A stretch of DNA of 64,000 nt from Bacteroidia bacterium (GTDB taxonomy: Bacteria; Bacteroidota; Bacteroidia; SpSt-205): contig BPGV01000001.1 in NCBI GenBank assembly GCA_026003215.1, positions 1,178,466 through 1,242,465 on the forward strand, written 5' to 3'. The notes beneath the pieces are model-generated. The model was not told the origin of the DNA. It made no database searches and worked only from the letters and a program-made list of their open reading frames with translations. Of this stretch, positions 31,852-54,023 are shown piece by piece. The position numbers and the translations under genes are program-made. The number at the start of each line of letters is the position of its first letter. Position 1 is the stretch's first letter.

Positions 31852-33606
31852 CTACATCCGCTCCGGTACAGGCAGGGTTAAGGCTTCCATCACCGCCTGT
31901 ATAGCCGCTGCATACACCGCCGAAAGCCCCAACCGAAAACTCCGTATAGGCGCTTCACTCCCCAGCACAGATAGGGTCTGATAAAACTCATTATACCGCC
32001 GAGTGAGCTCATATCCGTAATGCGCCAAAAGCGCAGGATTGAAGCTTCGCGCAGCGACCTCCATGAAATGCGGAAGGGCATACAGATACTGTAAAACGCT
32101 CTCTTCTAAAGATTCCAGTTGCACTGGCAGCTCCCCTTGGAGTGGCGCATACCCTTTTTCTGCGGCTTTCTCTAAGAGCCTTTTTGCCCGGACGTATCCA
32201 TATTGCAAAAAAGGCCCCGTAAAACCCTTCATATCTATGGACTCAGCGGGATCAAAGACAATATTTTTGGTAGGCTCTACCCGTAGCAGATAATATCGCA
32301 AGGCAGCTTGCCCCACGGCTTCGGCGATTGCTTGTTTTTCCTCCTCGGGCAAAGGCTCTGTGATAAGCTCGTAGGCCCGTGCGTGCATTTCCCCTAAAAG
32401 ATCGTCGGCATCTACGACGGTACCTTCGCGGGTTTTCATACGTCCGGTGGGCAGCTCTACCATACCATAAGAGAGGTGGTAGATTTTATCCGCGTAAGGC
32501 TTCCCCAGCCGCCGCAGGAGGGCGATTAGCACCCGCATGTGGTGGTCTTGCTCATTTCCAATCACATACACCGATTGCGTAAGGTCGGGATGATCTTGAA
32601 ACTTAAGCTCCGCAGTGCCTAAATCTTGGGTCACATAAACAGAGGTACCGTCGCGCCGCAGGAGGATTTTCTTGCCGAGACCCTCATCAGTGAGGTCGGC
32701 CCATACGGCACCATCCGCTGAGCGGTAAAAAATACCCCGCGCCAACCCTTCTTCTACGATTTTTTTGCCCAGCCCATAGGTCTCCGACTCGTAATACACC
32801 TTATCAAACCGAATGCCTAACCGAGCGAAGGTTTGGTCAAAGCCGGCATAGACCCAGCTATTCATCTCACGCCAGAGGGCCAGGACTTCCGGGTCGCCGG
32901 CTTCCCAGGCTTGGAGGAGGGCCTGCGCCTCTTGAAAGAGCGGCGCTTGTACCATAGCTTCCTCCTCCGAAAGCCCCTGGGCTTTGAGCGCCTCTACCTC
33001 TTCTTTATAAGCTTTTTCAAAGGCCACATAACAATCTCCCACAAAATGGTCTCCTTTTTTGCCCGTAGTGGCCGGCGTAGCAGGCGCAAAGAACTTTTTC
33101 CAGCCTAACATAGACTTGCTGATATGAATACCTCGGTCATTCACGAGGTTAGCTCGTACGACGGTGGCGCCTATCCTTTCCCATAGGCGGCTCACGCATT
33201 CCCCCAGGCAGATATTACGCAGATGCCCTAAATGCAGCGGCTTATTGGTGTTGGGAGAAGGAAACTCTATCATGAGCTTGTCGGCCTTAGCGAGGGAGAG
33301 ACGGGTATACCCCTCCTGAGGCTGCAGGAGAGCTTCTCGCAAGAACTCCCCCCAAAAAGCCGGCGCAAAACGAATGTTTACAAAGCCTTTGACGACTTCA
33401 GCTTGGAGAATATGCGGGAGCGGCTGGAGTACCGCCTGGGTGGCGGCCTGTACATCCCCTCGGTAAGCCCGAAGGAGGGGAAAAATGTTCAAGGTGAGGG
33501 TTCCTTTTTGGTCAGGGGGCGTAAGCTCCACTCGGGGGAGGGCAGGCAGGTTCTTTACCTGCCAGGCTTCTTTCCAAGCGGCGAGCTGGGCGTGCCAGAA
33601 AGGCAT
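31852..33606 (-). CDS. argS: arginine--tRNA ligase
   Basis: HIGH-region motifs (SPNTNKPLHLGHLRN) and a DALR anticodon-binding C-terminus. I moved the start to the internal ATG at 33606 to remove a 78-aa unsupported extension. Confidence 0.88.
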   Translation of the reverse strand: MPFWHAQLAAWKEAWQVKNLPALPRVELTPPDQKGTLTLNIFPLLRAYRGDVQAATQAVLQPLPHILQAEVVKGFVNIRFAPAFWGEFLREALLQPQEGYTRLSLAKADKLMIEFPSPNTNKPLHLGHLRNICLGECVSRLWERIGATVVRANLVNDRGIHISKSMLGWKKFFAPATPATTGKKGDHFVGDCYVAFEKAYKEEVEALKAQGLSEEEAMVQAPLFQEAQALLQAWEAGDPEVLALWREMNSWVYAGFDQTFARLGIRFDKVYYESETYGLGKKIVEEGLARGIFYRSADGAVWADLTDEGLGKKILLRRDGTSVYVTQDLGTAELKFQDHPDLTQSVYVIGNEQDHHMRVLIALLRRLGKPYADKIYHLSYGMVELPTGRMKTREGTVVDADDLLGEMHARAYELITEPLPEEEKQAIAEAVGQAALRYYLLRVEPTKNIVFDPAESIDMKGFTGPFLQYGYVRAKRLLEKAAEKGYAPLQGELPVQLESLEESVLQYLYALPHFMEVAARSFNPALLAHYGYELTRRYNEFYQTLSVLGSEAPIRSFRLGLSAVYAAAIQAVMEALTLPVPERM

Positions 33607-33641
33607 GGCGGCAAAGTTATTGGGTAGTGTACCTTTGGGTG

Positions 33642-34769
33642 ATGCTGTGGTCCTACGAGCTGCCGGAGGAACGGATAGCCCAAGAACCCATAGAGCCCCG
33701 CCATACAGCCCGCCTGTTGCTCTATAAAAGGGGGGAGATACAAGAAACGATTTTCTTGCGTCTGGCAGCGTTTTTGCCTGAAAATACCCTCCTTTTATAC
33801 AACGACTCGCGGGTGGTACCCGCGCGCCTGCGTCAGGCAAAGAAGGAGTTTCTGCTTACAGAGCTAACGGAAGGCGGATGGGCTAAGGGGAGTCCGCAGC
33901 GCTGGAAAGGGCTTTTTCGGCCGGCGCGCTTCTGGCGGAAGGGCGGCCAGCTCACCTGGGAAACGCCTACTTTGACCCTCACCCTTGCCTGGGAAGGGCC
34001 CGCTAACGACCGAGAGGGCTACTTCCGGGCCGAATGGGTACCAGCCCAGCTACCAGCCCTTACGGTGTTAGAGCTTGTGGGAGAGCCGCCTCTGCCGCCG
34101 TACATCCGGCGCTCACCTACCGATGTAGATCGGCAGCGCTATCAGACCTTCTATGCACGCACGCCGGGGTCTGTGGCAGCCCCTACAGCCGGCCTCCACT
34201 TCACCCCCGAAGTATGGGAAAGGCTTCATGAGCGGGGCATCCGTACAGTTCCTCTCACCCTCCATGTGGGCTTGGGTACTTTTCTACCCCTCCAAAACCC
34301 GGAAGCCCCCGAGACCCACCCCATGCATGCCGAGTACTTTTTCGTCCCCGAGGCGACGATACAAGCCCTCCGCACGCAGGAAGGGCCTATTGTATGCGTA
34401 GGCACCACCAGTCTGCGTACCGTGGAGAGCTTGTATTGGTTAGGCACCTTGGCGCTCCAAGGCAAGCCCAACGCATATCTACCGGCGCTCCTCTGGCAGG
34501 GGGCTGAAGCCCTCCCCCCGCCTAAGGAAGCCTTGACGGCGCTACCCGCTCCCCTGCAAGGGCAAACCCAGCTTTACATCCTGCCAGGGTATCCCTTCCA
34601 GCTTGTGGATGGCCTTATTACCAACTTCCATCAGCCGCAAAGCACCCTCTTAGGCCTGGTGGAAGCCTTCATCGGCCGGGAGGGCATCCAACAGGTATAT
34701 AGCTACGCCTTAGAAAAAGGCTTTCGCTTCCTAAGCTACGGCGATACCTCCCTTTTGTGGCGCACATGA
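33642..34769 (+). CDS. queA: S-adenosylmethionine:tRNA ribosyltransferase-isomerase (canonical copy)
   Basis: YELPEERIAQ, LYNDSRVVPARL, AAPTAGLHFT, GTTSLRTVES, FHQPQSTLL and SYGDTSLL all match conserved QueA blocks. Confidence 0.85.
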   Translation: MLWSYELPEERIAQEPIEPRHTARLLLYKRGEIQETIFLRLAAFLPENTLLLYNDSRVVPARLRQAKKEFLLTELTEGGWAKGSPQRWKGLFRPARFWRKGGQLTWETPTLTLTLAWEGPANDREGYFRAEWVPAQLPALTVLELVGEPPLPPYIRRSPTDVDRQRYQTFYARTPGSVAAPTAGLHFTPEVWERLHERGIRTVPLTLHVGLGTFLPLQNPEAPETHPMHAEYFFVPEATIQALRTQEGPIVCVGTTSLRTVESLYWLGTLALQGKPNAYLPALLWQGAEALPPPKEALTALPAPLQGQTQLYILPGYPFQLVDGLITNFHQPQSTLLGLVEAFIGREGIQQVYSYALEKGFRFLSYGDTSLLWRT

Positions 34770-36094
34770 ACTGGCTTATTCACGAAGCCCGCATCCTCAC
34801 GGCTGAGGGGGAAATCATAGGGGATGCGTGGATAAAGGAAGGACGCTGGGCGGCTATCGGGCGCATACCCGCACATGCCAAAGGCTTTTCCTTCCCCGCC
34901 AAGGGGGCCTATCTCCTGCCTGGCCTGATAGATACGCATGTGCATTTTCGGGAACCGGGGCTAACCCCTAAGGGCGACTTCTACACCGAGAGCCGAGCCG
35001 CTGTCGCTGGCGGCGTCACCACCGTCTTTGACATGCCTAACACCCTGCCCCCCACAACCACGCTGGAAGCTTGGGCGCGCAAACGAGCCCTTGTCCGGGG
35101 TAAAAGCTGGACAAACTTCGCTTTGTACTTCGGGGCGACGGCAGACAACCTCCCCGCTATCCGACAGCTAAGCCCCAAGGAAGTGCCCGGCGTGAAAATC
35201 TTTCTGGCTTCCTCCACAGGGGAGCTGCTCCTCAATGAGGAACCGTGTGTGCGAGCCCTTATGCGCCATAGCCCCGTTCGGTTGCTTTTTCACAGTGAAA
35301 AAGAAGAACGCATCCAGGCCGCCCTCAAGCAGTGGGAGCAGGCTACCTGGGCCGAAGTGCCTGACCTACACACCCGCGCCCGCCCCCCCGAAGCGTGCGT
35401 AGAAAGCACTCGTTGGCTCCTGGAAGAGGCCCAGCAAGCAGAAGTACCCCTACATGTTCTACACATTACCACCGCCGAAGAAGTAGCCCTTTTACGGCAT
35501 CGTCCCGCACATCTCTCCGCCGAAACTTGCCCGGTGTATCTCCAATGGAGCGCTGAGGACTTCCCCCGCTACCAAAACCTCCTCAAATGTAACCCCTCTT
35601 TGAAGTACGCCGCTGATAAAGACGCTCTATGGCAAGGCCTTGTGGAGGGCACCTTAGCGGTGGTAGGTACCGACCATGCCCCCCATCTCCTCCCCGAAAA
35701 AACTCTTCCTTATCCGCAAGCGCCCAGCGGTGTGCCCAGTCATGGGTATGTACTCCCTTGGCTCTGGACTCTCGGACAGGCCTTTCAGTTACCCCTGGCC
35801 TTTTGGATAGAAAAGATGGTCTATGCCCCAGCACGCCTGTGGCAAATCCAAGGACGCGGCCCTATCCAAGAAGGCTTTTGGGCCGACGCCGTGCTCTTTG
35901 ACCCAGACGGCACTACTACCGTTCCCCCCATGGAAGCGCCGACTTACCCCACCAAGTGCCGATGGTCGCCTTTGGCAGGCAGCTCCCTGCGCGGGCGCGT
36001 AATAGCCGTATGGGTAAATGGAACCCTCTCCTACGCGAACAGTCTTTTTATTGGGCGACCTGCTGGACAAGAAGTGCGTTTCGCCTTTCCGTAA
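34766..36094 (+). CDS. pyrC: dihydroorotase (cyclic amidohydrolase family)
   Basis: PGLIDTHVHFREPG...GGVTTVFDMPNT. Its ATG overlaps the queA TGA (ATGA). Confidence 0.8.
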   Translation: MNWLIHEARILTAEGEIIGDAWIKEGRWAAIGRIPAHAKGFSFPAKGAYLLPGLIDTHVHFREPGLTPKGDFYTESRAAVAGGVTTVFDMPNTLPPTTTLEAWARKRALVRGKSWTNFALYFGATADNLPAIRQLSPKEVPGVKIFLASSTGELLLNEEPCVRALMRHSPVRLLFHSEKEERIQAALKQWEQATWAEVPDLHTRARPPEACVESTRWLLEEAQQAEVPLHVLHITTAEEVALLRHRPAHLSAETCPVYLQWSAEDFPRYQNLLKCNPSLKYAADKDALWQGLVEGTLAVVGTDHAPHLLPEKTLPYPQAPSGVPSHGYVLPWLWTLGQAFQLPLAFWIEKMVYAPARLWQIQGRGPIQEGFWADAVLFDPDGTTTVPPMEAPTYPTKCRWSPLAGSSLRGRVIAVWVNGTLSYANSLFIGRPAGQEVRFAFP

Positions 36095-44986: not shown

Positions 44987-45652
44987 TCAGCGTTTGGCCA
45001 CCACGATATAATGGTAGGGTAAGAGGTGCTCCTCCACACGCACCTGAGAGAAGCCGGCTTTTTTGAGTTCGTTTTCTACCTGAGTAGGGAAGAGGCGATG
45101 ATGGAGCGGGGGGCCTACGGGCGTCTCACGCGGCGCCCACTCCACTATAAGGATACGTCCGCCTTCCGGCAAAGAAGCCCTGAGCTTACGGAGGTACTCT
45201 ACCCTTTCGGGCAGATGATGGTACACATCCGCTAAAAAGGCCCATTCGGCTTCGCCGGGCTTGAGGTCGGGGGCCCGAGGCGATACTTTCCGGATTAGCC
45301 ACTGCTGGGACGAGAGGCCCAAACTATCCCGCCGCCGCTCCATATAGCGGAGGAGGCTGTCTTCTATATCCACCGCTATCACGGTGGCGCCTCGCCGCAC
45401 CATTCGCCAGCTGAAATACCCGGTGCCAGCCCCCAGATCGTACACCCGCCGGCCCTGTAGAGTACCTACCGCTTTTTCTATCCAATCCAGTAGCACCTCT
45501 GGCTGCTGGTACGCATCGCGCGCAGGGTTTTCTAAGATAGTTTGCCAGTCGGCCTTTCGGGTATGTCCGCCCGCATGCAGCACTCCTCGCGTGCCTTGTC
45601 CCGAGGCCATCCCCACCACCCACACCACCACAGACCCTATCCAAAAGCGCAT
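44987..45652 (-). CDS. class I SAM-dependent methyltransferase with an N-terminal signal/anchor sequence
   Basis: Motif I VYDLGAGTGYFS and an acidic loop VIAVDIED. An N-terminal hydrophobic segment MRFWIGSVVVWVVGMASG. Confidence 0.7.
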   Translation of the reverse strand: MRFWIGSVVVWVVGMASGQGTRGVLHAGGHTRKADWQTILENPARDAYQQPEVLLDWIEKAVGTLQGRRVYDLGAGTGYFSWRMVRRGATVIAVDIEDSLLRYMERRRDSLGLSSQQWLIRKVSPRAPDLKPGEAEWAFLADVYHHLPERVEYLRKLRASLPEGGRILIVEWAPRETPVGPPLHHRLFPTQVENELKKAGFSQVRVEEHLLPYHYIVVAKR

Positions 45653-45685
45653 ACGGCAAAAATACAAGAAAGCCCTTAGGAAAGT

Positions 45686-46459
45686 TTATTCTCCTTCGGC
45701 TGAGCGCTGCTTTTCGTAGAGCTCGGCCAGGTAAAGCTCCCGCAAAAAGTACGCACTGGCCCCAATCAGCGCAATGCTCCATCCTCGCCAGCCTAACCGC
45801 CAGCCCCCTTTAAGGACCAAGCTCTTAAAGAAGCGTGCCCCTCCTTTTGCAAACGAACGCCCCCAAAAAGGCCTCTTCCCGGCCTCATACAACGCTTGGG
45901 CAGCCAGCCGAGCGTAATGGGTATTGCGTGTGACATGTTCTGTGACGGTAGCGTAGGAGTAGTGCCATAACTCCCCCGCCAGGCGCACTGGCCGTATGCC
46001 TGCCTGAAGGTGTAGCCGCTCATGCACCGGCGCTTCATCCCAATGGGCTACGCCTCGAGCAAAAAGGCGGATCTTCCAATCGGGATACCAATCACTTGCC
46101 CGAATAAAAGCCCCGCAATACACCGCCACACGTAGAATCTCATACGCTGGGGCCCGCCAGCGGCCTTTTTCAGCGAGGATAGCTTCTCTCAGCGCAGGCG
46201 AGAGCACCTCGTCAGCATCCAGTGAGAGGATGTATCGGCCACGCGCTAAGCCGTTTGCCCAGTTTTTTTGGGCGCCATAGCCTGGGAAGGGCCTTTCATA
46301 CCAGCGCACTTGGGGAAAGCGTTCCGCTACCGCCCGCGTCCCATCGGTAGAACCGCTATCTACAATAACGATTTCATCGGCTACACCTTGCAGCGCTTCT
46401 AAGGTGGGCCCCAGTCGATGGGCTTCATTATACGTAATAAGGACAGCCGAAAGCTCCAT
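45686..46459 (-). CDS. glycosyltransferase family 2
   Basis: LSAVLITYNEA...VIVDSGSTDGT and a DADE/DXD-like motif. Its ATG lies 1 nt after the permease stop. Confidence 0.8.
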   Translation of the reverse strand: MELSAVLITYNEAHRLGPTLEALQGVADEIVIVDSGSTDGTRAVAERFPQVRWYERPFPGYGAQKNWANGLARGRYILSLDADEVLSPALREAILAEKGRWRAPAYEILRVAVYCGAFIRASDWYPDWKIRLFARGVAHWDEAPVHERLHLQAGIRPVRLAGELWHYSYATVTEHVTRNTHYARLAAQALYEAGKRPFWGRSFAKGGARFFKSLVLKGGWRLGWRGWSIALIGASAYFLRELYLAELYEKQRSAEGE

Positions 46460-46460
46460 C

Positions 46461-47717
46461 TTACGCCGCTGTACGTATAGCCTCGATCGGATGCAAGCGA
46501 GCCGCACTCCAAGCAGGAGCCATACCCGCCAAAAGCCCCACGAGTAGGGTAATCACCAACGACCATACGAGGTCCCCTACGGCCACCGCGACTACCAAGC
46601 CTTCTTGCGCAGCCCACCCCGATAAGGACACCATTAGAAGGGCCATCATACTTAGGCCTAAAAAGCCCCCCACCAGCGTCAGAAAAAGCCCCTCCACCAG
46701 AAAAAGCCCCAAGATAAACCCGCGCGGGGCACCCATTGCCCGCTGAATCCCTATTTCCCCCCGGCGCTCACGCACGGCTATATATAAAATATTAGCCACC
46801 CCAAACCCACCTACCAAAAGCGAAAAACCCGCAATAAAAAGCCCCACCATCTGGACATATTCAGCAATATCCCGCACCTGATCCAGAAGCGCATCTTGGC
46901 GGTTAATAGCGAAGTTATCTTCTGCTTGGGGCGGGAGGTGTCGGGCTTGCCGCATAAGGCCCCGCACCCGAGTTTCTAATAAGTCTATCGGAAGCGCTTC
47001 GGGGTCCTTGGCCCGCACTAAAAGGGTACGGTCCCCTTGGATGCTATAGCGAAAGAGACCATGAATCCGGTATTGGACCCCAAAAGGCACCAGCAGAGCA
47101 TTATCTAAATCTCCGCCAAAAGCGCCCTGAGCTTTGAGCACCCCAATCACCTGGATAGGATACCCGCCATACCACAGCACAACGCCCACTTCTTTATCGC
47201 TTCCCACAAGGTCCTGCATCAAGCGGCTGCCGACCACCCCCACCAAGGCTCCCCTATTCAGCTCCTCAGGCCGAAAAAAACGACCCCACTGCACTTCCAA
47301 CGGAAAAGCCGCCTCAAAGCCTTCTGTAATGCCGACCACCTGTGCCTCTTCCGTACGCCCTTTATACCGCAACTTTTGGCTAAACTGGTCGTACCGCAAA
47401 GCTACCCACGCAAGCTCCCCTAAGCCCTCCTGCACCGTATGATAATCTACCAGGGAAATGCACGGCCGGCGCACATACTGCTCCCACGGGATGTTTCCCC
47501 TAAGCTTCCAGGGGAAGCGATGTACATACACCGTAGAAGCCCCCAAGCGCTCAAAGCGACTGATGATAGAGCGTTCCATAGAATAGGTAAAAACCCGCAC
47601 AGAAGCCACAGAAAAGATGCCCAAGCTGATAGTAAGCAAGGTAAGGAGAGAACGGCGACGATGGGCCTCTACATTGCGGAAGGCTTGGCGAAGTATCTCC
47701 TCTACGAGCCGAAACAT
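46461..47717 (-). CDS. ABC transporter permease, FtsX/MacB/LolE-like, with no adjacent ATPase
   Basis: 418 aa. An N-terminal TM helix, a large periplasmic domain, then three C-terminal TM helices (FtsX fold). Confidence 0.75.
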   Translation of the reverse strand: MFRLVEEILRQAFRNVEAHRRRSLLTLLTISLGIFSVASVRVFTYSMERSIISRFERLGASTVYVHRFPWKLRGNIPWEQYVRRPCISLVDYHTVQEGLGELAWVALRYDQFSQKLRYKGRTEEAQVVGITEGFEAAFPLEVQWGRFFRPEELNRGALVGVVGSRLMQDLVGSDKEVGVVLWYGGYPIQVIGVLKAQGAFGGDLDNALLVPFGVQYRIHGLFRYSIQGDRTLLVRAKDPEALPIDLLETRVRGLMRQARHLPPQAEDNFAINRQDALLDQVRDIAEYVQMVGLFIAGFSLLVGGFGVANILYIAVRERRGEIGIQRAMGAPRGFILGLFLVEGLFLTLVGGFLGLSMMALLMVSLSGWAAQEGLVVAVAVGDLVWSLVITLLVGLLAGMAPAWSAARLHPIEAIRTAA

Positions 47718-47719
47718 GA

Positions 47720-47727
47720 TAACTTTG
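47720..47727 (+). promoter_or_regulatory. candidate -7 promoter element TAACTTTG
   Basis: Matches TAnnTTTG, 14 nt upstream of the queA-like ATG. Confidence 0.3.
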
Positions 47728-47740
47728 CGCCTGCAAAGAT

Positions 47741-48790
47741 ATGAGCAGCCGTCTTTCCGACTACGCTTTTGAACTGCCCGAAAGCCAAATAGCTCAGTAC
47801 CCGCCGCAACCGCGCGGCAGTAATCGCCTCCTGGTCCTCCACCGAGAAAGCGGCGAAATAGAACACCGGCATTTCTCAGAACTCCCCCAGTGCTTAGAGG
47901 AAGGCGATGTAATCTTATACAACAACTCGCTGTCTTTCCCTTGCCTCCTCATTGGCCACAAGGAACGCAGCACCTCGCCTGTAGAAGTACTCCTGCTTCG
48001 AGAGCTGGACCCGGAGTCCCACTTGTGGAATGCGATGGTGGAGCCAGCGCGGAAGATTCGGGTGGGGAATAAGATTCACTTCCCGAATAGTCCGCTGACA
48101 GCCGAGGTGGTAGATAATACGACCAGCCGCGAGCGAGCCATTCGTTTCATCGTGCCTCCAGGGGCTTCCTTAGCACAGCTTATAGAAGAACACGGACGTA
48201 TGGCGCTCCCACGCTATATAGTACGCCCCCATCGGCCAGAAGACTATCGAGACTTTCGGCCGGTATGGCAAGGGATTCCCGGTTCTGTGCAAGCCCCTGA
48301 TGCCAGTCTGCCTTTTACCCGAGTGCTTATCCGAGAGTTGGAAGTCAAAGGGGTGGAGTTTGTGCCTGTCACTCTCCATGTAGGTACAGCAAACTTCCGC
48401 ACGATTGAAGTGGAGGACCTTTTTAAGTTTTCCATGGATGCGGAGTACTTCCAGATTAGCGAAGAGTCGGCTCGTCGCGTGAATGAAGCGCGCCGCCAAG
48501 GGAAAAAAGTCTTGGTAGTGGGCGTGAGTGCCCTGCGCGCCGTGGAGTCCAGCCTTTCGGCCTATGGAGAGCTCAAGCCAGCCGACGACTGGACCGTAAA
48601 GTTTATTTTCCCACCGTATCGGCCTGTCATCCCCACGGCTTTTCTCACCCAGTTTCACCTGCCTAAGTCGGCTGGCTATATCGCTACGGCGACCTTTGGC
48701 GGGTACCTCAAAGTACGCAGAGCCTACGAAACCGCCCTCAAAGAAGGCTATCAGTGGGGCTGCTACGGCGACCTGCTCTTGATTATCTGA
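47741..48790 (+). CDS. divergent QueA-like paralog (S-adenosylmethionine:tRNA ribosyltransferase-isomerase family)
   Basis: Alignable to QueA end to end (YAFELPESQIAQYP, VTLHVGTANF, GVSALRAVES, FHLPKS, CYGDLLLI). The block that is AAPTAGLHF in canonical QueA reads APDASLPFT here, and the NDSRV-PARL block reads NNSLSFPCLL. Confidence 0.7.
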   Translation: MSSRLSDYAFELPESQIAQYPPQPRGSNRLLVLHRESGEIEHRHFSELPQCLEEGDVILYNNSLSFPCLLIGHKERSTSPVEVLLLRELDPESHLWNAMVEPARKIRVGNKIHFPNSPLTAEVVDNTTSRERAIRFIVPPGASLAQLIEEHGRMALPRYIVRPHRPEDYRDFRPVWQGIPGSVQAPDASLPFTRVLIRELEVKGVEFVPVTLHVGTANFRTIEVEDLFKFSMDAEYFQISEESARRVNEARRQGKKVLVVGVSALRAVESSLSAYGELKPADDWTVKFIFPPYRPVIPTAFLTQFHLPKSAGYIATATFGGYLKVRRAYETALKEGYQWGCYGDLLLII

Positions 48791-48793
48791 AAC

Positions 48794-49492
48794 GTGCGGA
48801 TATGGGTCCAACTTAGCGCGGGCGAAGGGAGCCGCTTCGGCAGCGTCACCCCTAAGCAATTCCTCCGCCTGGGCAGGAAACCTCTCCTGACCCACAGCCT
48901 GGCCACCTTTCTTTCCCTCTGGCCCGAGAGTCCTGTAATCGTAGTTTTGCCCTTAGCGCATTTTGCCCGTGGACGCACCCTGGTACAAAAATACTTTCCG
49001 CAAGCACAGCTCCATTTCGTGGTGGGGGGAGCCACCCGCAGCGCCTCCACCGAAGCTGCCCTCGCTTACCTCCAAAAGTTAGAAGCCCTTCGCCCAGAAG
49101 TAACGATTGCTTTCCACGATGCAGCTCGGCCTTTTCCTTCCGCTGCTTTGATAGAAAGGGTCTTCAAGACAGCACAAGAAAAAGGCGCTGCCGTATGTGG
49201 GCTGCCGGTACGCTTCTCGCTACGTAAGGTAGAAGGGGACACTTCGCAGGCCTTGCCTCGCGAAAGTATATGGGAGGTGCAAACGCCCCAAGCCTTCCGA
49301 GGGGACATTCTGGCCAGCGCCTGGGAGAAGCTCTCCCCCACCGCCGAGGCCTACTTCACCGATGAGGGTAGCTGGATAGAAGCGGCCGGCTTGCCCGTAG
49401 CCATGGTCTCAGGCGAACCCACCAACCTTAAGGTTACTTATCCCATAGACTGGGAGGTAGCCCGAACCCTTCTCCGGCGAGGTTCCCTCTAA
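48794..49492 (+). CDS. ispD: 2-C-methyl-D-erythritol 4-phosphate cytidylyltransferase
   Basis: 232 aa. N-terminal glycine-rich LSAGEGSRFGS...PKQFLRL and IspD fold motifs. Confidence 0.8.
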   Translation: MRIWVQLSAGEGSRFGSVTPKQFLRLGRKPLLTHSLATFLSLWPESPVIVVLPLAHFARGRTLVQKYFPQAQLHFVVGGATRSASTEAALAYLQKLEALRPEVTIAFHDAARPFPSAALIERVFKTAQEKGAAVCGLPVRFSLRKVEGDTSQALPRESIWEVQTPQAFRGDILASAWEKLSPTAEAYFTDEGSWIEAAGLPVAMVSGEPTNLKVTYPIDWEVARTLLRRGSL

Positions 49493-49518: not shown

Positions 49519-49592
49519 GGCGAGATAGCTCAGTTGGTAAGAGCGCAGGATTCATAACCCTGAGGTCGCGGGTTCGACTCCCGCTCTCGCCA
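49519..49592 (+). tRNA. tRNA-Met (anticodon CAT; could be tRNA-Ile2 carrying lysidine)
   Basis: I folded the cloverleaf by hand: acceptor GGCGAGA/TCTCGCC, D-arm GCTC/GAGC, anticodon loop TTCATAA, T-arm GCGGG-TTCGACT-CCCGC, discriminator A. Confidence 0.8.
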
Positions 49593-49595
49593 CGA

Positions 49596-49668
49596 CGGGG
49601 CGTAGCGCAGCTGGTAGCGCGCAGCGTTCGGGACGCTGAGGTCGCTGGTTCGAGTCCAGTCGCCCCGA
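49596..49668 (+). tRNA. tRNA-Pro (anticodon CGG)
   Basis: Acceptor CGGGGCG/CGCCCCG with the C1:G72 pair typical of tRNA-Pro. D-arm GCGC/GCGC, anticodon loop TTCGGGA, T-loop TTCGAGT, discriminator A. Confidence 0.8.
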
Positions 49669-49669
49669 C

Positions 49670-52600
49670 CTACCGCACCCGTTCAGCTATCGCACACGGG
49701 AGCCGGTAAGTACGTGTACGGCCAGCCTGGGGTTCTATGAGCTGCACTTGTACGATGTACATCCCCGCAGGAAGGCGCCGGCCGCTCTCCTCTACCCCTT
49801 CCCAACGGAAACGATTTTCCCCTACCGCTAAAAGCACTCCTTCTGCGACTTGGCGCACTTTGTAGCCCGCCAGGGTATGCACACTGATATCCGCTCGGGT
49901 GCCTGCCTGCTCAACTGAGACGTATACCCACAAAAGGTCTTCATAGCCATCCCCATCCGGCGAAAAAGTCTTCGGTTCTACCCGTATGGGACCGGAGTCG
50001 GCAGGGGCCTCGCGCTGCGAGTTAGGATAGCCTGGCGTACCATAACGGACAGAGCTGGCCGCAGAATACCAGTTTTGGGGATCCTCCGAAGGCTGATGGG
50101 GAGAGAGCCGCTCTAAGGCTACGCCTTTACGCGTGCGCAGGTCCGGAAAGTGATACGAAGCGGCATACGGTACCTTATCCACCGCCATGGAATCCCTCCG
50201 TCTGAGTAGCCACACCGTATCCTGCTGATAATCGTAGGTAGGAAAATCCCCCATCTGATAAAAGCGCGCCGTAGGAGGCGGAAGGTAACGCCCCTGCACA
50301 TCGGCGGTGTCCTCCGTGAGACAGAGATAGCTCCCCGGCTCTAAGAGCAAGGGAAGCGAAGTAATCTCGGTATGCCTGGTAGGCGAAGTGCCCCGCGCTA
50401 AGAGCAGCTCGCGCACATCTATAAGCTTAGCGGAACGGTTGTATAGCTCCACGTAGCGACTACCCCCGGTTTGAGGCTCAGGCAGGATTTCATTTATCAC
50501 CACATCGCCGGGCGCCACGGGGGCAGGTACCCGCACGATGGCCAACAAGGTGTCTACAGGCTCTCCCGCGCAAGTACGCAGGCCACTTACCTTGAGGTAG
50601 TACGTTTGATTTTCGGCAAGAGGCACCATAGGAAGAAGCTCCACGCCAAAGCCGGTCATGATAGGCGCAGCTGCCAGGAGCGGCACCGCCGGCGCCCACA
50701 CATAGCGACTTATGTCGCTCAGCAAGAGGGTATCCATCCGCTCAGAGAAAAGCACTTGCACGACGGGAGGGAAGTACGCTGCACTTTTTATAGAGGGAGA
50801 GGGCGGGGGTATGGTTTGACGCAAGCTATTGGGCTGGCCGGGCGTGCCACCTACTGGAGCTGTGCTGGCGGCCCATCCTTCCTCCCCGCCACAAAACCAC
50901 CCTTCCCATAGCCGTTCTAAACTCCAGCCGCCTTCATCTTTTGCGGGGTCCTTGTACCACGAAGGCACATAGGTGACTTCTTCTATGACCTGTCCAGCGG
51001 TGTCCTGAAGCCTAATCGTAGCTCCGCTATTAGAGAGGGCTGGGAAGGAAACCACTCCCACACACTGCCCGTATGGAGAGAGGGCTACCGCGCCCTCCGG
51101 CGAGGTAAGCACCACATACTGCCCAGGACGCAGGAGATAAGCAGGCAGGAGGCGCTGGGTGCTCCCCACCCCCAGCTGCCACCCCTCCAAGCTAATGTAC
51201 TTTTGCGAAGCATTATACAGCTCTACATACTCATAGGGGGGAAGGCCAACAGGTGGGTCTGGGTCGGCCATAATCTCGGTCAAGACCACATCATACGGGC
51301 TAGCCGGCGCCGGCCAGCCAAATACGTAAGTATGCGTAGCTTCATTCCCTACGCAGTCGCTCACCCGCACCGTGAGGGTATATTCAGTACTGAACGAAAG
51401 CGGCGTAGCTAAAAAAACCTGTATTTCATCCCCCCATATCTGTACAGCGCTTACATTTATCCCGCCTGAAAGGGTATAGCGGCTAAGGTCTCGCATCGCC
51501 GCACTATCTACCGGCTCAGAAAAGCGCAAAAGGATTTCACTGGCCGAACGGAAGGAGACACTTACCAGTTGGGGGGGAGTTTGGTCCTGCCACAGACCCG
51601 CTACGCTGTTGGCTGCACCGGGAGTGCCCCCCGCTGCGGCTAACGACGCTATCCAGTTGGAGTCGGTCGCACAGAGGTTATTGAGATCTATGCGCTCCAA
51701 ACTCCAGCCGCCTTGGGCCTTAGTTGGGTCGCGATACCAGGCGCTGGTATAACTCACATGGTCCAATCGCTGCGCACTGGCATTCCAGAGTGTGAGGCTA
51801 TCGCCGCTGTCGTTGAGCGTGGGCCAGGAAGCTAACCCCATACTCCCAGGATAACTCCCCGTAGCAGCTGAAGGCACCAAAAGCAAATATCCGCCCGGTG
51901 GTAGGATAGCATTCCCCAAAGTGGCACATTGCGTACCATCACAGAACTGCATACCCCCTACTTGCACCCAACGAGGAGAACGGTTATACAGCTCTACATA
52001 CTCATACGGCGGAAGGCCCACCACGGGCGTAGGTTTGGCCATAATCTCTGAAAAAATCACTTCGCCCGGCTGAGGCTCCTCCGGCAATACCACATCTACC
52101 GTGCCCGAGCCGCTATTGCCTGCCATATCCTGCACGCCTACATACTGGAGGGTATATACCACTGAGGGTTGGAGGCCAGGGGATACCGTCAGCTCCACGG
52201 TAGCTGGGGTGGGCCGGGCCGCAGCTGCCACAGAAAGCCCCCCATTCACAAAGCTATAAGCAGCGGTATTCGTAGCCGAGGTAGGTTCTACCGACTCTGA
52301 AAAGTAAAGCCGCACGGAGGTAGAGGAGACCGCTTCGGCTTGGAGTACCTGAGGGGGCGTAGTATCCACAATAGGCGGACCAATATAAAAGTCATCCAGC
52401 CAAAGGTTTTGTCGGTTGGTAGAAGTGTGCTGAAAATACACGCCAAAATAGCTTGTGGTGGTAATCGTATTGTCCGTTACGAAAAACTCACTTTCCCAGT
52501 AGCCTGAAGAGTCGGTGAAAGCCTGCCAAGTACCAGCGTTATCGCGCAGCACCCGCACCCACAGGATGTTGTTGGTACCGCCGAAGCGCCCTGCGCGTCC

Positions 52601-53008
52601 GCCCGCCAGCCGCGTATGCGTCCCCCCCTGCTGACGCCAGAGTTCCAAGCTGTCCGACGTACCTGTAATCCCGCCCAGTTTTAGGTAATACCCATTTAGC
52701 GCAGGGTCAGTAAGGTCAGCCCTATCGGCTACGAGGTAAACCCGCACATAGTTTGCAGTGGAGGGGTTGAAAGCTACCCGTACCCAAAAGCGCCATTCGG
52801 TATTGTTTATCAGGGCATTAGGGGTAGAAAGGTAGAGCGTAGCGGTAGCGGCTGGGCCATTACTACGCAGACGATAATCCGTCGTAACCATCCAATAGGC
52901 ATCGGTGCCCGACCAGGTGGGATTAACCGTGAAGTCCCCATCCGCAAAATCATCTTGCACTTGGGCCCAGGCCAGCATGACTCCTACGACCAGTCCCCCC
53001 CATCTCAT
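49670..53008 (-). CDS. large secreted cell-surface protein with three lamin-tail-like domains and a type-B T9SS C-terminal sorting domain
   Basis: Signal peptide MRWGGLVVGVMLAWAQ, read from the internal ATG at 53008. It has three repeats of ...PYEYVELYN(R/A)S..., and the C-terminal FSPDGDGYED motif of the gliding-motility/T9SS type-B CTD. Confidence 0.65.
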   Translation of the reverse strand: MRWGGLVVGVMLAWAQVQDDFADGDFTVNPTWSGTDAYWMVTTDYRLRSNGPAATATLYLSTPNALINNTEWRFWVRVAFNPSTANYVRVYLVADRADLTDPALNGYYLKLGGITGTSDSLELWRQQGGTHTRLAGGRAGRFGGTNNILWVRVLRDNAGTWQAFTDSSGYWESEFFVTDNTITTTSYFGVYFQHTSTNRQNLWLDDFYIGPPIVDTTPPQVLQAEAVSSTSVRLYFSESVEPTSATNTAAYSFVNGGLSVAAAARPTPATVELTVSPGLQPSVVYTLQYVGVQDMAGNSGSGTVDVVLPEEPQPGEVIFSEIMAKPTPVVGLPPYEYVELYNRSPRWVQVGGMQFCDGTQCATLGNAILPPGGYLLLVPSAATGSYPGSMGLASWPTLNDSGDSLTLWNASAQRLDHVSYTSAWYRDPTKAQGGWSLERIDLNNLCATDSNWIASLAAAGGTPGAANSVAGLWQDQTPPQLVSVSFRSASEILLRFSEPVDSAAMRDLSRYTLSGGINVSAVQIWGDEIQVFLATPLSFSTEYTLTVRVSDCVGNEATHTYVFGWPAPASPYDVVLTEIMADPDPPVGLPPYEYVELYNASQKYISLEGWQLGVGSTQRLLPAYLLRPGQYVVLTSPEGAVALSPYGQCVGVVSFPALSNSGATIRLQDTAGQVIEEVTYVPSWYKDPAKDEGGWSLERLWEGWFCGGEEGWAASTAPVGGTPGQPNSLRQTIPPPSPSIKSAAYFPPVVQVLFSERMDTLLLSDISRYVWAPAVPLLAAAPIMTGFGVELLPMVPLAENQTYYLKVSGLRTCAGEPVDTLLAIVRVPAPVAPGDVVINEILPEPQTGGSRYVELYNRSAKLIDVRELLLARGTSPTRHTEITSLPLLLEPGSYLCLTEDTADVQGRYLPPPTARFYQMGDFPTYDYQQDTVWLLRRRDSMAVDKVPYAASYHFPDLRTRKGVALERLSPHQPSEDPQNWYSAASSVRYGTPGYPNSQREAPADSGPIRVEPKTFSPDGDGYEDLLWVYVSVEQAGTRADISVHTLAGYKVRQVAEGVLLAVGENRFRWEGVEESGRRLPAGMYIVQVQLIEPQAGRTRTYRLPCAIAERVR

Positions 53009-53042
53009 GCGAGGCAAGATAAGCTTTTTACCTAAACCTGAG

Positions 53043-54023
53043 CTATTCCCAGCCCTCCGGCGCAAAGGAGTGCAAGCACTCCCGCACGTAGGCGGGTGTA
53101 AGCGCTCGCATGCAGTCATGATGCCCGCGTGGGCAGCTGGAGCAGCCCAGCTTACTACAAGGCCGGCAGGAGAGGTAGGGTACTTCTATGTTGCGGTGCG
53201 GAACCTGCCAGGGGTACATGCCAAAGGCCGGGACAGTATTGCCCCAGAGCACAGCCACTGGCGTACCCATAGCCGCGCCTAAGTGCGCTGTACCGGTGTC
53301 ATGGCTCAGGAGCAGTTGGGCTTGACCAATGGCCGCCGCCGTCTCTAAAAGGCCATACCGCCCCGCACCTACGATTACCGGCCCGGGGCAGGCCGCAGCA
53401 ATAGTATGAGCTACCTCTTCTTCGCTGGAGCCGCCCAAAAGGATTACCCCACCTCGCCAGTTCTGGAGCAGTTGTATAAAATACCCTGTCGGCCATCGCT
53501 TGGTCGGGTAGGTGCCCCCCAAGCCTACGGCTATCCAAGGCGCGCTTTCTCCCTTCGCCCGAAGCTCCTCCCGAATAGCCTCCACTACCTTCTGCGGGAT
53601 ATGCACCTCCAGCGGGCCTAATGCCTCAGGAGCTATCCCCCAAGGTCGCAGGGCCTCCCCATACCGAAGTACCACATGCCGCACCGGAAATACCCGCTTC
53701 AGCCGAACCATGAGCCACTTGCGGAGATTTTCTTTGGGGAAGGTGGAAAAACGCTCATACCGCAGCTTCCACCGGAGAGACAGGGTGCGTAGGTTGCGGT
53801 GAAGGTCTATTACCCCGCTCCAGCGGGTAGCCCGCACCTCTGTGGATAGCGGCCATCTATGCACAGCCGTAACAAGGGGATGGTGTGCTACCAGAGGTTC
53901 ATACACCGCCCGTGTGAGGAAATGCACCTCCGCTTCTGGATAGCGGTTCTTTAGGGCCCGAATGATTGGCGTAGTAAGGACTATGTCCCCCATGCTACTG
54001 AGCCGAACCACCAAAAACCTCAT
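53043..54023 (-). CDS. glycosyltransferase family 9 (LPS heptosyltransferase-like)
   Basis: MRFLVVRLSSMGDIVLTTPIIRALK is a GT9 N-terminus. Its ATG overlaps the upstream gene's TGA (ATGA). Confidence 0.75.
   Translation of the reverse strand: MRFLVVRLSSMGDIVLTTPIIRALKNRYPEAEVHFLTRAVYEPLVAHHPLVTAVHRWPLSTEVRATRWSGVIDLHRNLRTLSLRWKLRYERFSTFPKENLRKWLMVRLKRVFPVRHVVLRYGEALRPWGIAPEALGPLEVHIPQKVVEAIREELRAKGESAPWIAVGLGGTYPTKRWPTGYFIQLLQNWRGGVILLGGSSEEEVAHTIAAACPGPVIVGAGRYGLLETAAAIGQAQLLLSHDTGTAHLGAAMGTPVAVLWGNTVPAFGMYPWQVPHRNIEVPYLSCRPCSKLGCSSCPRGHHDCMRALTPAYVRECLHSFAPEGWE

Follow-up and report, generated by a model that had tools for sequence, protein, structure and literature searches.

A QueA homolog with replaced family-invariant residues at the ancestral queA locus of a Bacteroidia bacterium, maintained beside an intact long-form QueA

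QueA is the tRNA preQ1(34) S-adenosylmethionine ribosyltransferase-isomerase. Two genes of this family lie in the stretch of 64,000 nucleotides analysed here (the window), which is part of the 2.27-Mb genome of a hot-spring Bacteroidia bacterium. We find that the divergent gene, copy B, is the descendant of the ordinary short queA at its ancestral locus, that many of its family-invariant residues are replaced, and that it is nevertheless conserved by selection and accompanied by a second homolog, copy A, in which these residues are intact. Most likely, copy A supplies the QueA activity and copy B has a changed function. The role of copy B is probably different from the reaction known for QueA.

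Copy B has a predicted QueA fold but lacks a third of the invariant residues

Copy B was compared with characterised QueA proteins (E. coli b0405; B. subtilis 1YY3; T. maritima 1VKY; EC 2.4.99.17) and with the corresponding family models. Its residues 5-348 cover positions 1-322 of the 322 of Pfam PF02547 (321.2 bits, E ~1e-95), and its scores stay marginally below both NCBIfam equivalog cutoffs (NF001140, 308.9 vs 324; TIGR00113, 263.3 vs 267.45). The AF2 model (pLDDT 86, pTM 0.85) predicts the two-domain QueA fold, an alpha/beta domain with an inserted beta-barrel. In a Foldseek search of this model against the PDB, 1yy3, 1vky and 1wdi were the sole significant matches (E 1e-25 to 1e-29). 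A preliminary description of this DNA had stated that copy B aligns to QueA from end to end and has kept its scaffold, and both statements hold.

Our literature search for active-site residues of QueA returned none, the papers found giving the fold and an unresolved ligand; a PDB sequence search for QueA yielded 1vky, 1yy3 and 1wdi only, with no ligand-bound structure among the matches. We therefore used a conservation count instead of a map of catalytic residues. Fifty-six alignment columns are identical in QueA of E. coli, T. maritima and B. subtilis and, in addition, at least 95% conserved in both Bacteroidota sets (90 short QueA and 121 long-form homologs). Copy A is unchanged in all of these columns, whereas copy B is changed in 19. 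By this measure of conservation, the active site of copy B appears to be altered. The 37 residues that it keeps include R25, N61, E82, H213, E235, R266, E269, H306, S310 and D344. The invariant histidines H191 and H230 are lost, and the new residues C68, Q184, D187, S189, N218, F230, Q304, G312, W339 and C341 are fixed in the clade of close relatives (B clade). Next to the fixed C68, R69 is lost in one part of this clade and retained in the sub-clade P0018-P0025 (PCRL).

The replacements fall into the blocks listed in Table 1. The preliminary description was right about the changes in two motifs, NNSLSFPCLL (61-70, canonical N(N/D)(T/S)(K/R)V.PARL) and VQAPDASLPF (183-192, canonical VAAPTAGLHF). 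It had counted VTLHVGTANF, GVSALRAVES and FHLPKS as retained, but invariant positions are changed in these blocks too (G217A, T218N, T262V, T263S, N304Q, L312G), and with 19 positions replaced copy B does not have the full set of invariant residues expected of an ordinary duplicate. In the AF2 model, the changed residues either come just after beta strands of the alpha/beta domain or begin the helix or strand that follows, and the loop 181-193 has a pLDDT of 58-62. The 1VKY crystal structure leaves a segment of 32 residues unresolved, the residues being unspecified in the paper (PMC1282579). Judged by sequence conservation, the conserved pocket-type blocks of copy B are changed.

Table 1. Positions in the window of both QueA-type genes, their neighbours and the altered blocks of copy B.
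Feature	Position	Strand	Description
Copy A	33642..34769	+	375 aa; GIV23393.1 / MCX7980777.1; long-form QueA, 56/56 invariant positions intact
Amidohydrolase (dihydroorotase-like) gene	34757..36094	+	overlaps the end of copy A
Family-2 glycosyltransferase gene	45686..46507	-	conserved block upstream of copy B
FtsX/MacB-type ABC permease gene	46461..47717	-	Pfam MacB_PCD and FtsX; divergent from copy B; synteny marker of ancestral queA
TAACTTTG	47720..47727	+	fits TAnnTTTG; 21 nt upstream of the copy B ATG
Copy B	47741..48790	+	349 aa, ATG start; GIV23407.1 / MCX7980791.1; divergent short-type QueA homolog
NNSLSFPCLL, residues 61-70	47921..47950	+	canonical NNT(K/R)V.PARL; V65S, A68C, R69L
GSVQAPDASLPFT, residues 181-193	48281..48319	+	canonical G(A/S)VAAPTAGLHF(T/S); A184Q, T187D, G189S, H191P; flexible loop
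LHVGTANFR, residues 212-220	48374..48400	+	canonical LHVG.GTF; G217A, T218N; H213 kept
GVSALRAVES, residues 261-270	48521..48550	+	canonical GTT..R..ES; T262V, T263S; R266, E269 kept
TQFHLPKSAGYI, residues 303-314	48647..48682	+	canonical TNFH.P.S(T/S)L(L/I); N304Q, L312G; F305, H306, P308, S310 kept
WGCYGD, residues 339-344	48755..48772	+	canonical F(F/L)SYGD; F339W and clade-fixed C341; G343, D344 kept
ispD	48794..49492	+	Pfam IspD 141.7 bits; 4 bp downstream of copy B
tRNA-Met(CAT) and tRNA-Pro(CGG)	49519..49593, 49596..49670	+	downstream of ispD

Copy A belongs to a separate long-form lineage

Copy A also matches PF02547 end to end (317.1 bits, E ~1e-95) and falls just short of the two NCBIfam cutoffs (NF001140, 317.6 vs 324; TIGR00113, 264.1 vs 267.45). 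As to its start, the open reading frame list reaches a GTG at 33627, and the 100%-identical database protein P0121 has 375 aa. After GTTxxRxxES, copy A carries an insertion (LYWLG...) that aligns with Dysgonomonas-, Niabella- and Flavobacteriales-type members. These proteins form a clade of 375-440 aa with a bootstrap of 100/100, which includes Dysgonomonas spp., Niabella spp. and many MAGs; a 'Prevotella' long form is Dysgonomonas-like according to the homolog search. The neighbourhood of the long form (argS, A, amidohydrolase, Omp85) is conserved.

The long-form lineage is in the same Pfam family as QueA and has all canonical motifs, and PGAP names some of its members QueA. It differs from copy B in forming a clade of its own, in the insertion of 26-40+ residues, in its neighbourhood and in sequence, copy A and copy B being only 29% identical at the protein level. 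Copy A had been described as canonical with all blocks intact. This is correct for the motifs, but not for the lineage, and the gene is intact in every relative examined, so that a pseudogenised copy A elsewhere in the clade does not come into play. The literature search brought up no paper on the long form, and this widespread lineage appears to be undescribed.

Copy B occupies the ancestral queA locus

In the NJ analysis, bootstrap values were 100 for the B clade, 99 for B together with P0027/28 and 100 for the long form; the nesting of B in the short Bacteroidota type received 67, and 95 with P0243 included. In the B clade and in the intermediate P0028, but not in P0029, the FtsX/MacB gene stands divergent to the QueA-type gene, and the same arrangement is found beside canonical queA in Haliscomenobacter and Rufibacter. 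On the other side, B clade and intermediates alike have a QueA-type gene next to ispD. Copy B descends from an ordinary short Bacteroidota queA and is located at the ancestral locus (FtsX/MacB gene, queA, ispD). It is thus a syntenic, tree-nested descendant of the short queA and not the added 'second' copy for which it had been taken.

In 11 of 11 B-clade genes, a TAnnTTTG box, which we take to be the Bacteroidota -7 promoter element, lies 21-22 nt before the start codon; such a box also precedes intermediate and canonical short queA genes. No terminator-like site was found between copy B and ispD, and the two genes are probably co-transcribed. Both ispD and the tRNA pair had been placed correctly in the preliminary description (Pfam IspD; tRNAs found). 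They do not point to a new substrate, as the ispD adjacency is inherited and the tRNA pair occurs in four of the seven B-clade loci scanned and is missing in the other three. We also rejected the pair as a clue to the function of copy B because tRNA-Met and tRNA-Pro are not queuosine substrate tRNAs. Altogether, copy B has an inherited gene neighbourhood in which nothing suggests a new pathway. Recent horizontal transfer of copy A or copy B was rejected as well, since GC and GC3 of both genes resemble those of the neighbouring genes.

Both copies are present in all four genomes that could be checked (this genome, SKW77, GCA_026414975.1, SKYG92, GCA_025054525.1, and SKYB116, GCA_025062295.1). 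The two genes are ~100 kb apart in SKW77, which makes the 13 kb between them in the window incidental, and none of the Bacteroidota loci examined contains a second QueA gene within 10 kb. Using E. coli Tgt in tblastn, we obtained no tgt match in the window or in the Bacteroidota loci examined. A search with Rfam detected no preQ1 riboswitch in the window, where just the two tRNAs were matched.

Copy B is under strong purifying selection

The open reading frame of copy B (349-351 aa) is intact in 11 of 11 species-level hot-spring MAGs and in ~26 clusters at 90% identity. Within the clade, dN is 0.10-0.18 and dS is >2 or saturated. Because of this saturation in most pairs, we give dN and an upper-bound-like median omega of ~0.06 instead of dN/dS ratios. 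For the same genome pairs, dN of copy B is about half that of copy A (0.140 vs 0.319 and 0.158 vs 0.317). Copy B is under strong purifying selection and shows no decay.

At the changed sites, pairwise identity in the B clade is 0.867 compared to 0.721 at ordinary sites and ~0.99 at the invariant sites of real QueA. At 31 sites the B clade is fixed for a residue other than that of short canonical QueA, while nine sites have newly gained constraint and 20 have lost it; positions 69, 185, 186, 191, 217 and 262 vary further inside the clade. The flexible loop is constant in length and carries the motif D-(A/G)-S-L-x-F, which the B clade has in common with its sister clade P0027/P0028. Further short-type lineages (P0027-29, P0242-P0308, a Prevotella-type cluster and Porphyromonas) have differing, lineage-specific replacements at the same positions, and the barrel-domain motif V(E/D)PARKIR(V/I)GNK is conserved in these altered lineages. 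Net charge and pI, taken as a stand-in for a loss of tRNA binding, do not differ between the groups.

Discussion

A kept scaffold, changed pocket-type blocks and strong purifying selection make a functionally diverged paralog a fair reading of copy B. To this extent the neofunctionalised paralog of the preliminary description stands, with the role of the 'second copy' reversed. The explanation that we prefer starts from copy B as the original queA of the lineage, whose conserved pocket-type loops would have been rebuilt at the ancestral locus. The normal reaction (preQ1-tRNA + SAM -> epoxyqueuosine-tRNA) would be supplied by copy A. Copy B would no longer make epoxyqueuosine, but may still use the QueA cleft to bind a ligand of the nucleoside or tRNA type and, as an enzyme that is still catalytic, act on a different acceptor or perform a different SAM-dependent step. 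We put this explanation as a whole forward tentatively and rate its probability at a little under one half. Its more specific form, in which the B clade is a new enzyme on the QueA fold that uses SAM or a related nucleoside with a different acceptor or product, we regard as possible, but rather unlikely. The preferred explanation is favoured by changed sites that stay more conserved than the ordinary sites of the clade, by a flexible loop of constant length with a shared motif and by the co-occurrence of copy B with copy A. The lower conservation of the changed sites relative to the invariant sites of real QueA would speak against it, as would the lost H191 and H230, the partial loss of R69 and the inherited gene neighbourhood, and a third, canonical short queA may lie elsewhere in the genome. 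Likewise, the differing replacements in sister clades and other short-type lineages look like relaxed catalytic constraint and would fit a non-enzyme too.

Such a non-enzyme would be a QueA pseudoenzyme that has lost the ribosyltransferase-isomerase chemistry and is kept as a partner, perhaps for copy A, with a role in tRNA binding or regulation. We consider this a serious, though on balance unlikely, alternative. It would account for the loss of invariant polar residues (T187, H191, T218, H230, N304 and, in part, R69), for the partly relaxed constraint at formerly invariant sites including the 20 that lost it, for the heterogeneity of the replacements in other short-type lineages beside a preserved barrel motif, and for the strict co-occurrence with an intact copy A in the four genomes checked. 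The higher overall conservation of copy B than of copy A would also be expected of a protein with many interaction surfaces. However, the pocket blocks have acquired fixed residues that are reactive or polar (C68, D187, S189, Q184, N218, Q304, C341), and the constant length and conserved motif of the flexible loop would be unexpected if binding had been lost. Moreover, a QueA oligomer or an A-B interaction is purely putative, and the two genes are unlinked.

Copy B could instead be a working QueA isozyme with compensated changes, either redundant with copy A or sharing out the four substrate tRNAs with it. This fits the full-length homology and fold, NCBIfam scores that, like those of copy A, are only marginally under the cutoffs, the retained H213, E269, H306, D344 and R25, the ancestral chromosomal position of queA and strong purifying selection. 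We nevertheless hold it to be improbable, as E. coli and Thermotoga share the same residue at each of the 19 changed positions, more than 200 Bacteroidota homologs of both lineages show at least 95% conservation there, and some of these positions vary further in the B clade. Heat adaptation was ruled out as the cause of the replacements, because the thermophile T. maritima is among the three references and keeps the residues. Finally, the reading of copy B as redundant and in the process of becoming a pseudogene, for which the many lost invariant residues next to an intact second copy might be quoted, is effectively refuted by the selection data, with reading frames intact throughout the clade, dN low at saturated dS and below that of copy A, and the promoter-like box conserved upstream.

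Among known systems, QueA itself is the closest to copy B, which has full-length homology to it, its fold, 37 of the 56 residues and the chromosomal position of queA in related Bacteroidota. In contrast to QueA, residues of the APTAGLHF loop and of GTT, TNFH, GTF and PARL are replaced, both equivalog cutoffs are missed, and the gene coexists with a homolog that keeps all 56 residues. Non-catalytic paralog subunits of tRNA-modifying enzymes are known from eukaryotes, namely QTRT2 with QTRT1 and ADAT3 with ADAT2. By analogy, copy B may resemble QTRT2 and ADAT3 as a diverged paralog minus invariant residues that is under selection beside an intact paralog in a pathway for the tRNA wobble base; these two are, however, eukaryotic, and for copy B both a complex with copy A and lost catalysis are hypothetical. 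A precedent for the preferred explanation from within the queuosine pathway is DpdA, a divergent tgt paralog that was retargeted from tRNA to DNA (PMC5699537) and is encoded in a dedicated dpd gene cluster. With copy B it has in common that it is a divergent second copy of a queuosine-pathway enzyme, the changed substrate being a feature of DpdA. Copy B differs in its location at the ancestral queA locus (GT2, FtsX/MacB permease, IspD) without new partner genes. Literature searches for QueA paralogs, queA2 and QueA-like proteins gave nothing relevant. Thus, the family is a known one, and we found no paper that describes a QueA variant remodelled in this way.

To our knowledge, the QueA reaction, in which the ribosyl moiety of SAM becomes, by transfer and rearrangement, the epoxycyclopentanediol ring of queuosine, is found nowhere else, and we know of only one function for the QueA fold. 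Copy B is a natural experiment on the residues needed for QueA chemistry and a candidate for either new SAM-ribosyl chemistry or the first QueA pseudoenzyme. Copy A and copy B share one generic name in public records, and for this reason a Bacteroidota genome scored as 'queuosine pathway present' from its sequence may have been credited with the wrong gene. If the B clade is indeed a new enzyme, it would add a second reaction type to an otherwise single-reaction fold. The Bacteroidota would then have two QueA lineages, a long form that does the classical job and a short form that has repeatedly been freed to change.

Descent of the two QueA-type genes

Both the long-form homolog copy A and the divergent homolog copy B match the Pfam profile PF02547 over its whole length (317.1 and 321.2 bits, respectively) and fall slightly short of the cutoffs of NF001140 (324; copy A 317.6, copy B 308.9) and TIGR00113 (267.45; 264.1 and 263.3). 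They share only 29% identity with about 50 gapped positions, and their GC and GC3 contents are like those of the adjoining genes. In the public records, GIV23393.1 (copy A) and GIV23407.1 (copy B) are located on one 2,268,343-bp contig and are named just 'S-adenosylmethionine:tRNA ribosyltransferase-isomerase'.

Features in the window
Feature	Position	Strand	Description
Copy A	33642..34769	+	375 aa
Copy B	47741..48790	+	ORF, 349 aa, ATG start
TAnnTTTG box of copy B	47720-47727		equivalent sites in loci L011-L019 and L066
argS ORF as listed	31852-33840	-	TTG start, ~200-bp overlap with copy A start
Class-I methyltransferase	44987-45667	-	226 aa, 2 kb upstream of the B locus block
tRNA-Met(CAT)/tRNA-Pro(CGG) pair	49519-49670		2-3 nt apart, directly downstream of ispD
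Lamin-tail/Big_5 protein	49670-53119	-	1149 aa, three lamin-tail domains and a bacterial Ig-like domain (Big_5)

The listed argS ORF comprises 662 aa compared to 584-587 aa in orthologs, which probably places the true start further downstream and makes the overlap with copy A an artefact of the longest-ORF choice.

By overall similarity, copy B groups with ordinary short Bacteroidota QueA and is 47-50% identical to proteins of Saprospiraceae, Cytophagales and Rufibacter, for which the PGAP name is QueA. Copy A falls into a distinct long-form lineage, which carries an insertion of 26 to 40 or more residues, starting with LYWLG, directly after GTTxxRxxES. Its near relatives have 375-386 aa, and forms of about 400-440 aa are found in Chitinophagaceae and Niabella, Flavobacteriales and Bacteroidales. 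This lineage (375-440 aa; homologs P0121-P0240 and P0440-P0557; loci L091-L095 and L099) is widespread in Bacteroidota, including Niabella and cultured Dysgonomonas species. All canonical motifs are present, and PGAP naming is inconsistent, with QueA in some cases (among them some Dysgonomonas proteins) and a generic name in others.

In a neighbour-joining tree with 100 bootstraps, the long-form clade and the B clade (copy B and its close relatives) were each supported by 100, and B together with the homologs P0027/P0028 by 99. Nesting of B within the Bacteroidota short-type group received 67, and 95 with one more representative included. The B locus forms a block in which minus-strand GT2 and FtsX/MacB permease genes are followed by the QueA-type gene and ispD, both plus-strand. 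We observed this arrangement in the window, in the related MAG SKW77, in the deeper P0020 sub-clade and also at the intermediate P0028. Canonical queA of Haliscomenobacter and Rufibacter is divergent from the same permease gene, and ispD lies 4.4 kb downstream of it in Rufibacter. Copy A is part of a different conserved block (argS, A, amidohydrolase, Omp85). Synteny agrees with the tree and points to copy B as the former queA. The preliminary description had taken copy A as the canonical queA and copy B as the second paralog; similarity, tree and synteny reverse these roles by placing B with ordinary queA.

Motif replacement in copy B

We aligned 245 sequences: copies A and B, E. coli QueA, the crystal-structure sequences of T. 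maritima and B. subtilis, and 240 database homologs. Three motif states were found. Canonical blocks are common to the reference enzymes, the long-form proteins (copy A among them) and the short QueA of Bacteroidota, which has 348-356 aa; B-type blocks occur in copy B and in the 25 clusters nearest to it (68-98% identity), and a few lineages (P0027, P0028, P0029 and P0035) show an intermediate state.

Conserved blocks in the canonical and B-type states
Block	Canonical	B-type
1	N(N/D)(T/S)(K/R)V.PARL	N.SL(P/S)FPC(L/R)L
2	G(A/S)VAAPTAGLHF	GSVQ(A/V/P)(P/S)DASL(P/A)FT
3	TLHVG.GTF	LH(V/T)G.(A/P)NFR
4	GTT..R..ES	G(V/A/T/M)S.LR..ES
5	TNFH.P.S(T/S)L(L/I)	LTQFH.P(K/R)(S/A).GYI
6	F(F/L)SYGD	WGCYGD

The motif changes noticed earlier are real: among 56 invariant columns (without variation among the three reference enzymes and with conservation of 95% or more in each of the two Bacteroidota groups), 19 are changed in copy B and none in copy A. 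The replacements are V65S, A68C, R69L, P155A, Q173R, T174P, A184Q, T187D, G189S, H191P, G217A, T218N, H230F, T262V, T263S, N304Q, L312G, A318T and F339W, while R25, N61, E82, H213, E235, R266, E269, T285, H306, S310, Y329 and D344 are still present. Blocks previously described as retained are indeed recognisable, but contain replacements as well.

The QueA fold is preserved in the AlphaFold2 model of copy B (mean pLDDT 86, pTM 0.85), whose only significant PDB neighbours are three QueA structures (E 1e-25 to 1e-29). In this model, changed residues directly follow beta strands of the alpha/beta domain or open the helix or strand that comes next, and further ones fall within the low-confidence loop 181-193. 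Since a PDB sequence search returned three QueA entries and no others, we infer an 'active-site region' for the changed blocks from conservation and topology.

Maintenance and constraint

Copy B is a maintained gene. Scanning one genome per species, we found a B-type gene in 11 MAGs labelled 'Bacteroidia bacterium', whose isolate names (SKW, SKYB, SKYG, DT_Bin, KatS3mg026) suggest hot-spring metagenomes. Ten encode an uninterrupted ORF of 349-351 codons and the eleventh ends at a contig edge. Compared to the window gene, dN of B was 0.10-0.18, with dS above 2 or saturated and not computable; the median omega of computable pairs was ~0.06. Across the same genome pairs B evolves at half the rate of A (dN 0.140 versus 0.319 for SKW77 and 0.158 versus 0.317 for the MAG SKYB116). 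All 11 B-clade genes are preceded by a TAnnTTTG box, matching the -7 promoter element of Bacteroidota, at 21-22 nt from the start codon. As only 23 bp separate copy B from the divergent FtsX/MacB gene in the window, the two promoters must extend into coding sequence or into each other. No terminator-like site was found between copy B and ispD.

Within the B clade, the 37 retained invariant positions have a mean pairwise identity of 0.948 and the 19 replaced ones of 0.867, against 0.721 at all other positions; in real QueA groups the same 19 positions reach 0.99. The replaced sites are therefore still under constraint, now towards new residues, though more loosely than before. Relative to short canonical QueA, another residue has become fixed at 31 positions, and constraint was gained at 9 and lost at 20.

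Genomic neighbourhood

A and B occur together in the window, SKW77, SKYB116 and a further related MAG, SKYG92. In SKW77 they are ~100 kb apart on one 453-kb contig, which deprives the 13-kb spacing in the window of significance. The tRNA pair is conserved in four of seven B-clade loci scanned (L011, L013, L016, L019) and absent from L014, L018 and L066. We rejected it as a functional clue because of these three loci and because neither tRNA is a queuosine substrate. The neighbourhood of copy B is inherited and provides no information on a new pathway. The coding range of the lamin-tail protein ends at the tRNA-Pro end coordinate. The methyltransferase has a weak match (36.5 bits) to PF08003 (Methyltransf_9), the CmoB tRNA-modification family.

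Divergence of short-type QueA in Bacteroidota

In a profile search against 1.84 billion representative proteins, the B clade formed a single cluster at 50% identity. Many next-best matches were short-type, Bacteroidota-like proteins in which the signature V(E/D)PARKIR(V/I)GNK of the barrel domain is preserved and invariant positions show other, lineage-specific replacements. Examples are a Cytophagales MAG, the reduced symbiont Candidatus Shikimatogenerans and a 398-aa form in Prevotella sp. MAGs (P0245 cluster); in Porphyromonas pasteri and relatives (L027-L030) about nine invariant sites are altered. As replacements affect several lineages, short-type divergence with loss of invariant residues looks recurrent in Bacteroidota. 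The replacements differ between lineages, including P0242-P0308. The Porphyromonas motifs read GAVVGPAASFHFS, ITVHNGLGNYR and TNFHMSKS. The highly divergent QueA-like protein of the beetle symbiont Candidatus Shikimatogenerans (P0265; 193-kb contig, very small genome) has only 5 of 19 canonical residues at checked positions.

Possible functions of copy B

In the literature searched, we found no description of QueA paralogs, long-form QueA or the B clade. We tentatively favour a changed reaction or substrate for copy B, a reading that we place not far below an even chance. Several observations speak for copy B still being a ligand-binding protein, probably an enzyme: half of the invariant polar residues are retained, new Cys, Asp, Ser, Gln, Asn and Trp residues are fixed in the pocket blocks, and the flexible loop has kept its length and a motif, partly shared with the sister clade. 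The absence of two invariant histidines, partly relaxed constraint at former invariant sites and the heterogeneous replacements across related lineages would fit a non-catalytic partner or regulator, which is possible but rather unlikely. An 'ordinary duplicate' is unlikely. That copy B is still a QueA appears improbable, and slightly less room is left for readings beyond those considered here. Decay, the least credible by far, is excluded by the data.

The nearest precedent for copy B in the queuosine pathway is DpdA, a divergent tgt paralog that acts on DNA (PMC5699537). Returning to a changed function, it is most economical to assume that the classical QueA reaction is carried by the long-form copy A and that copy B, the former queA, has changed its function.
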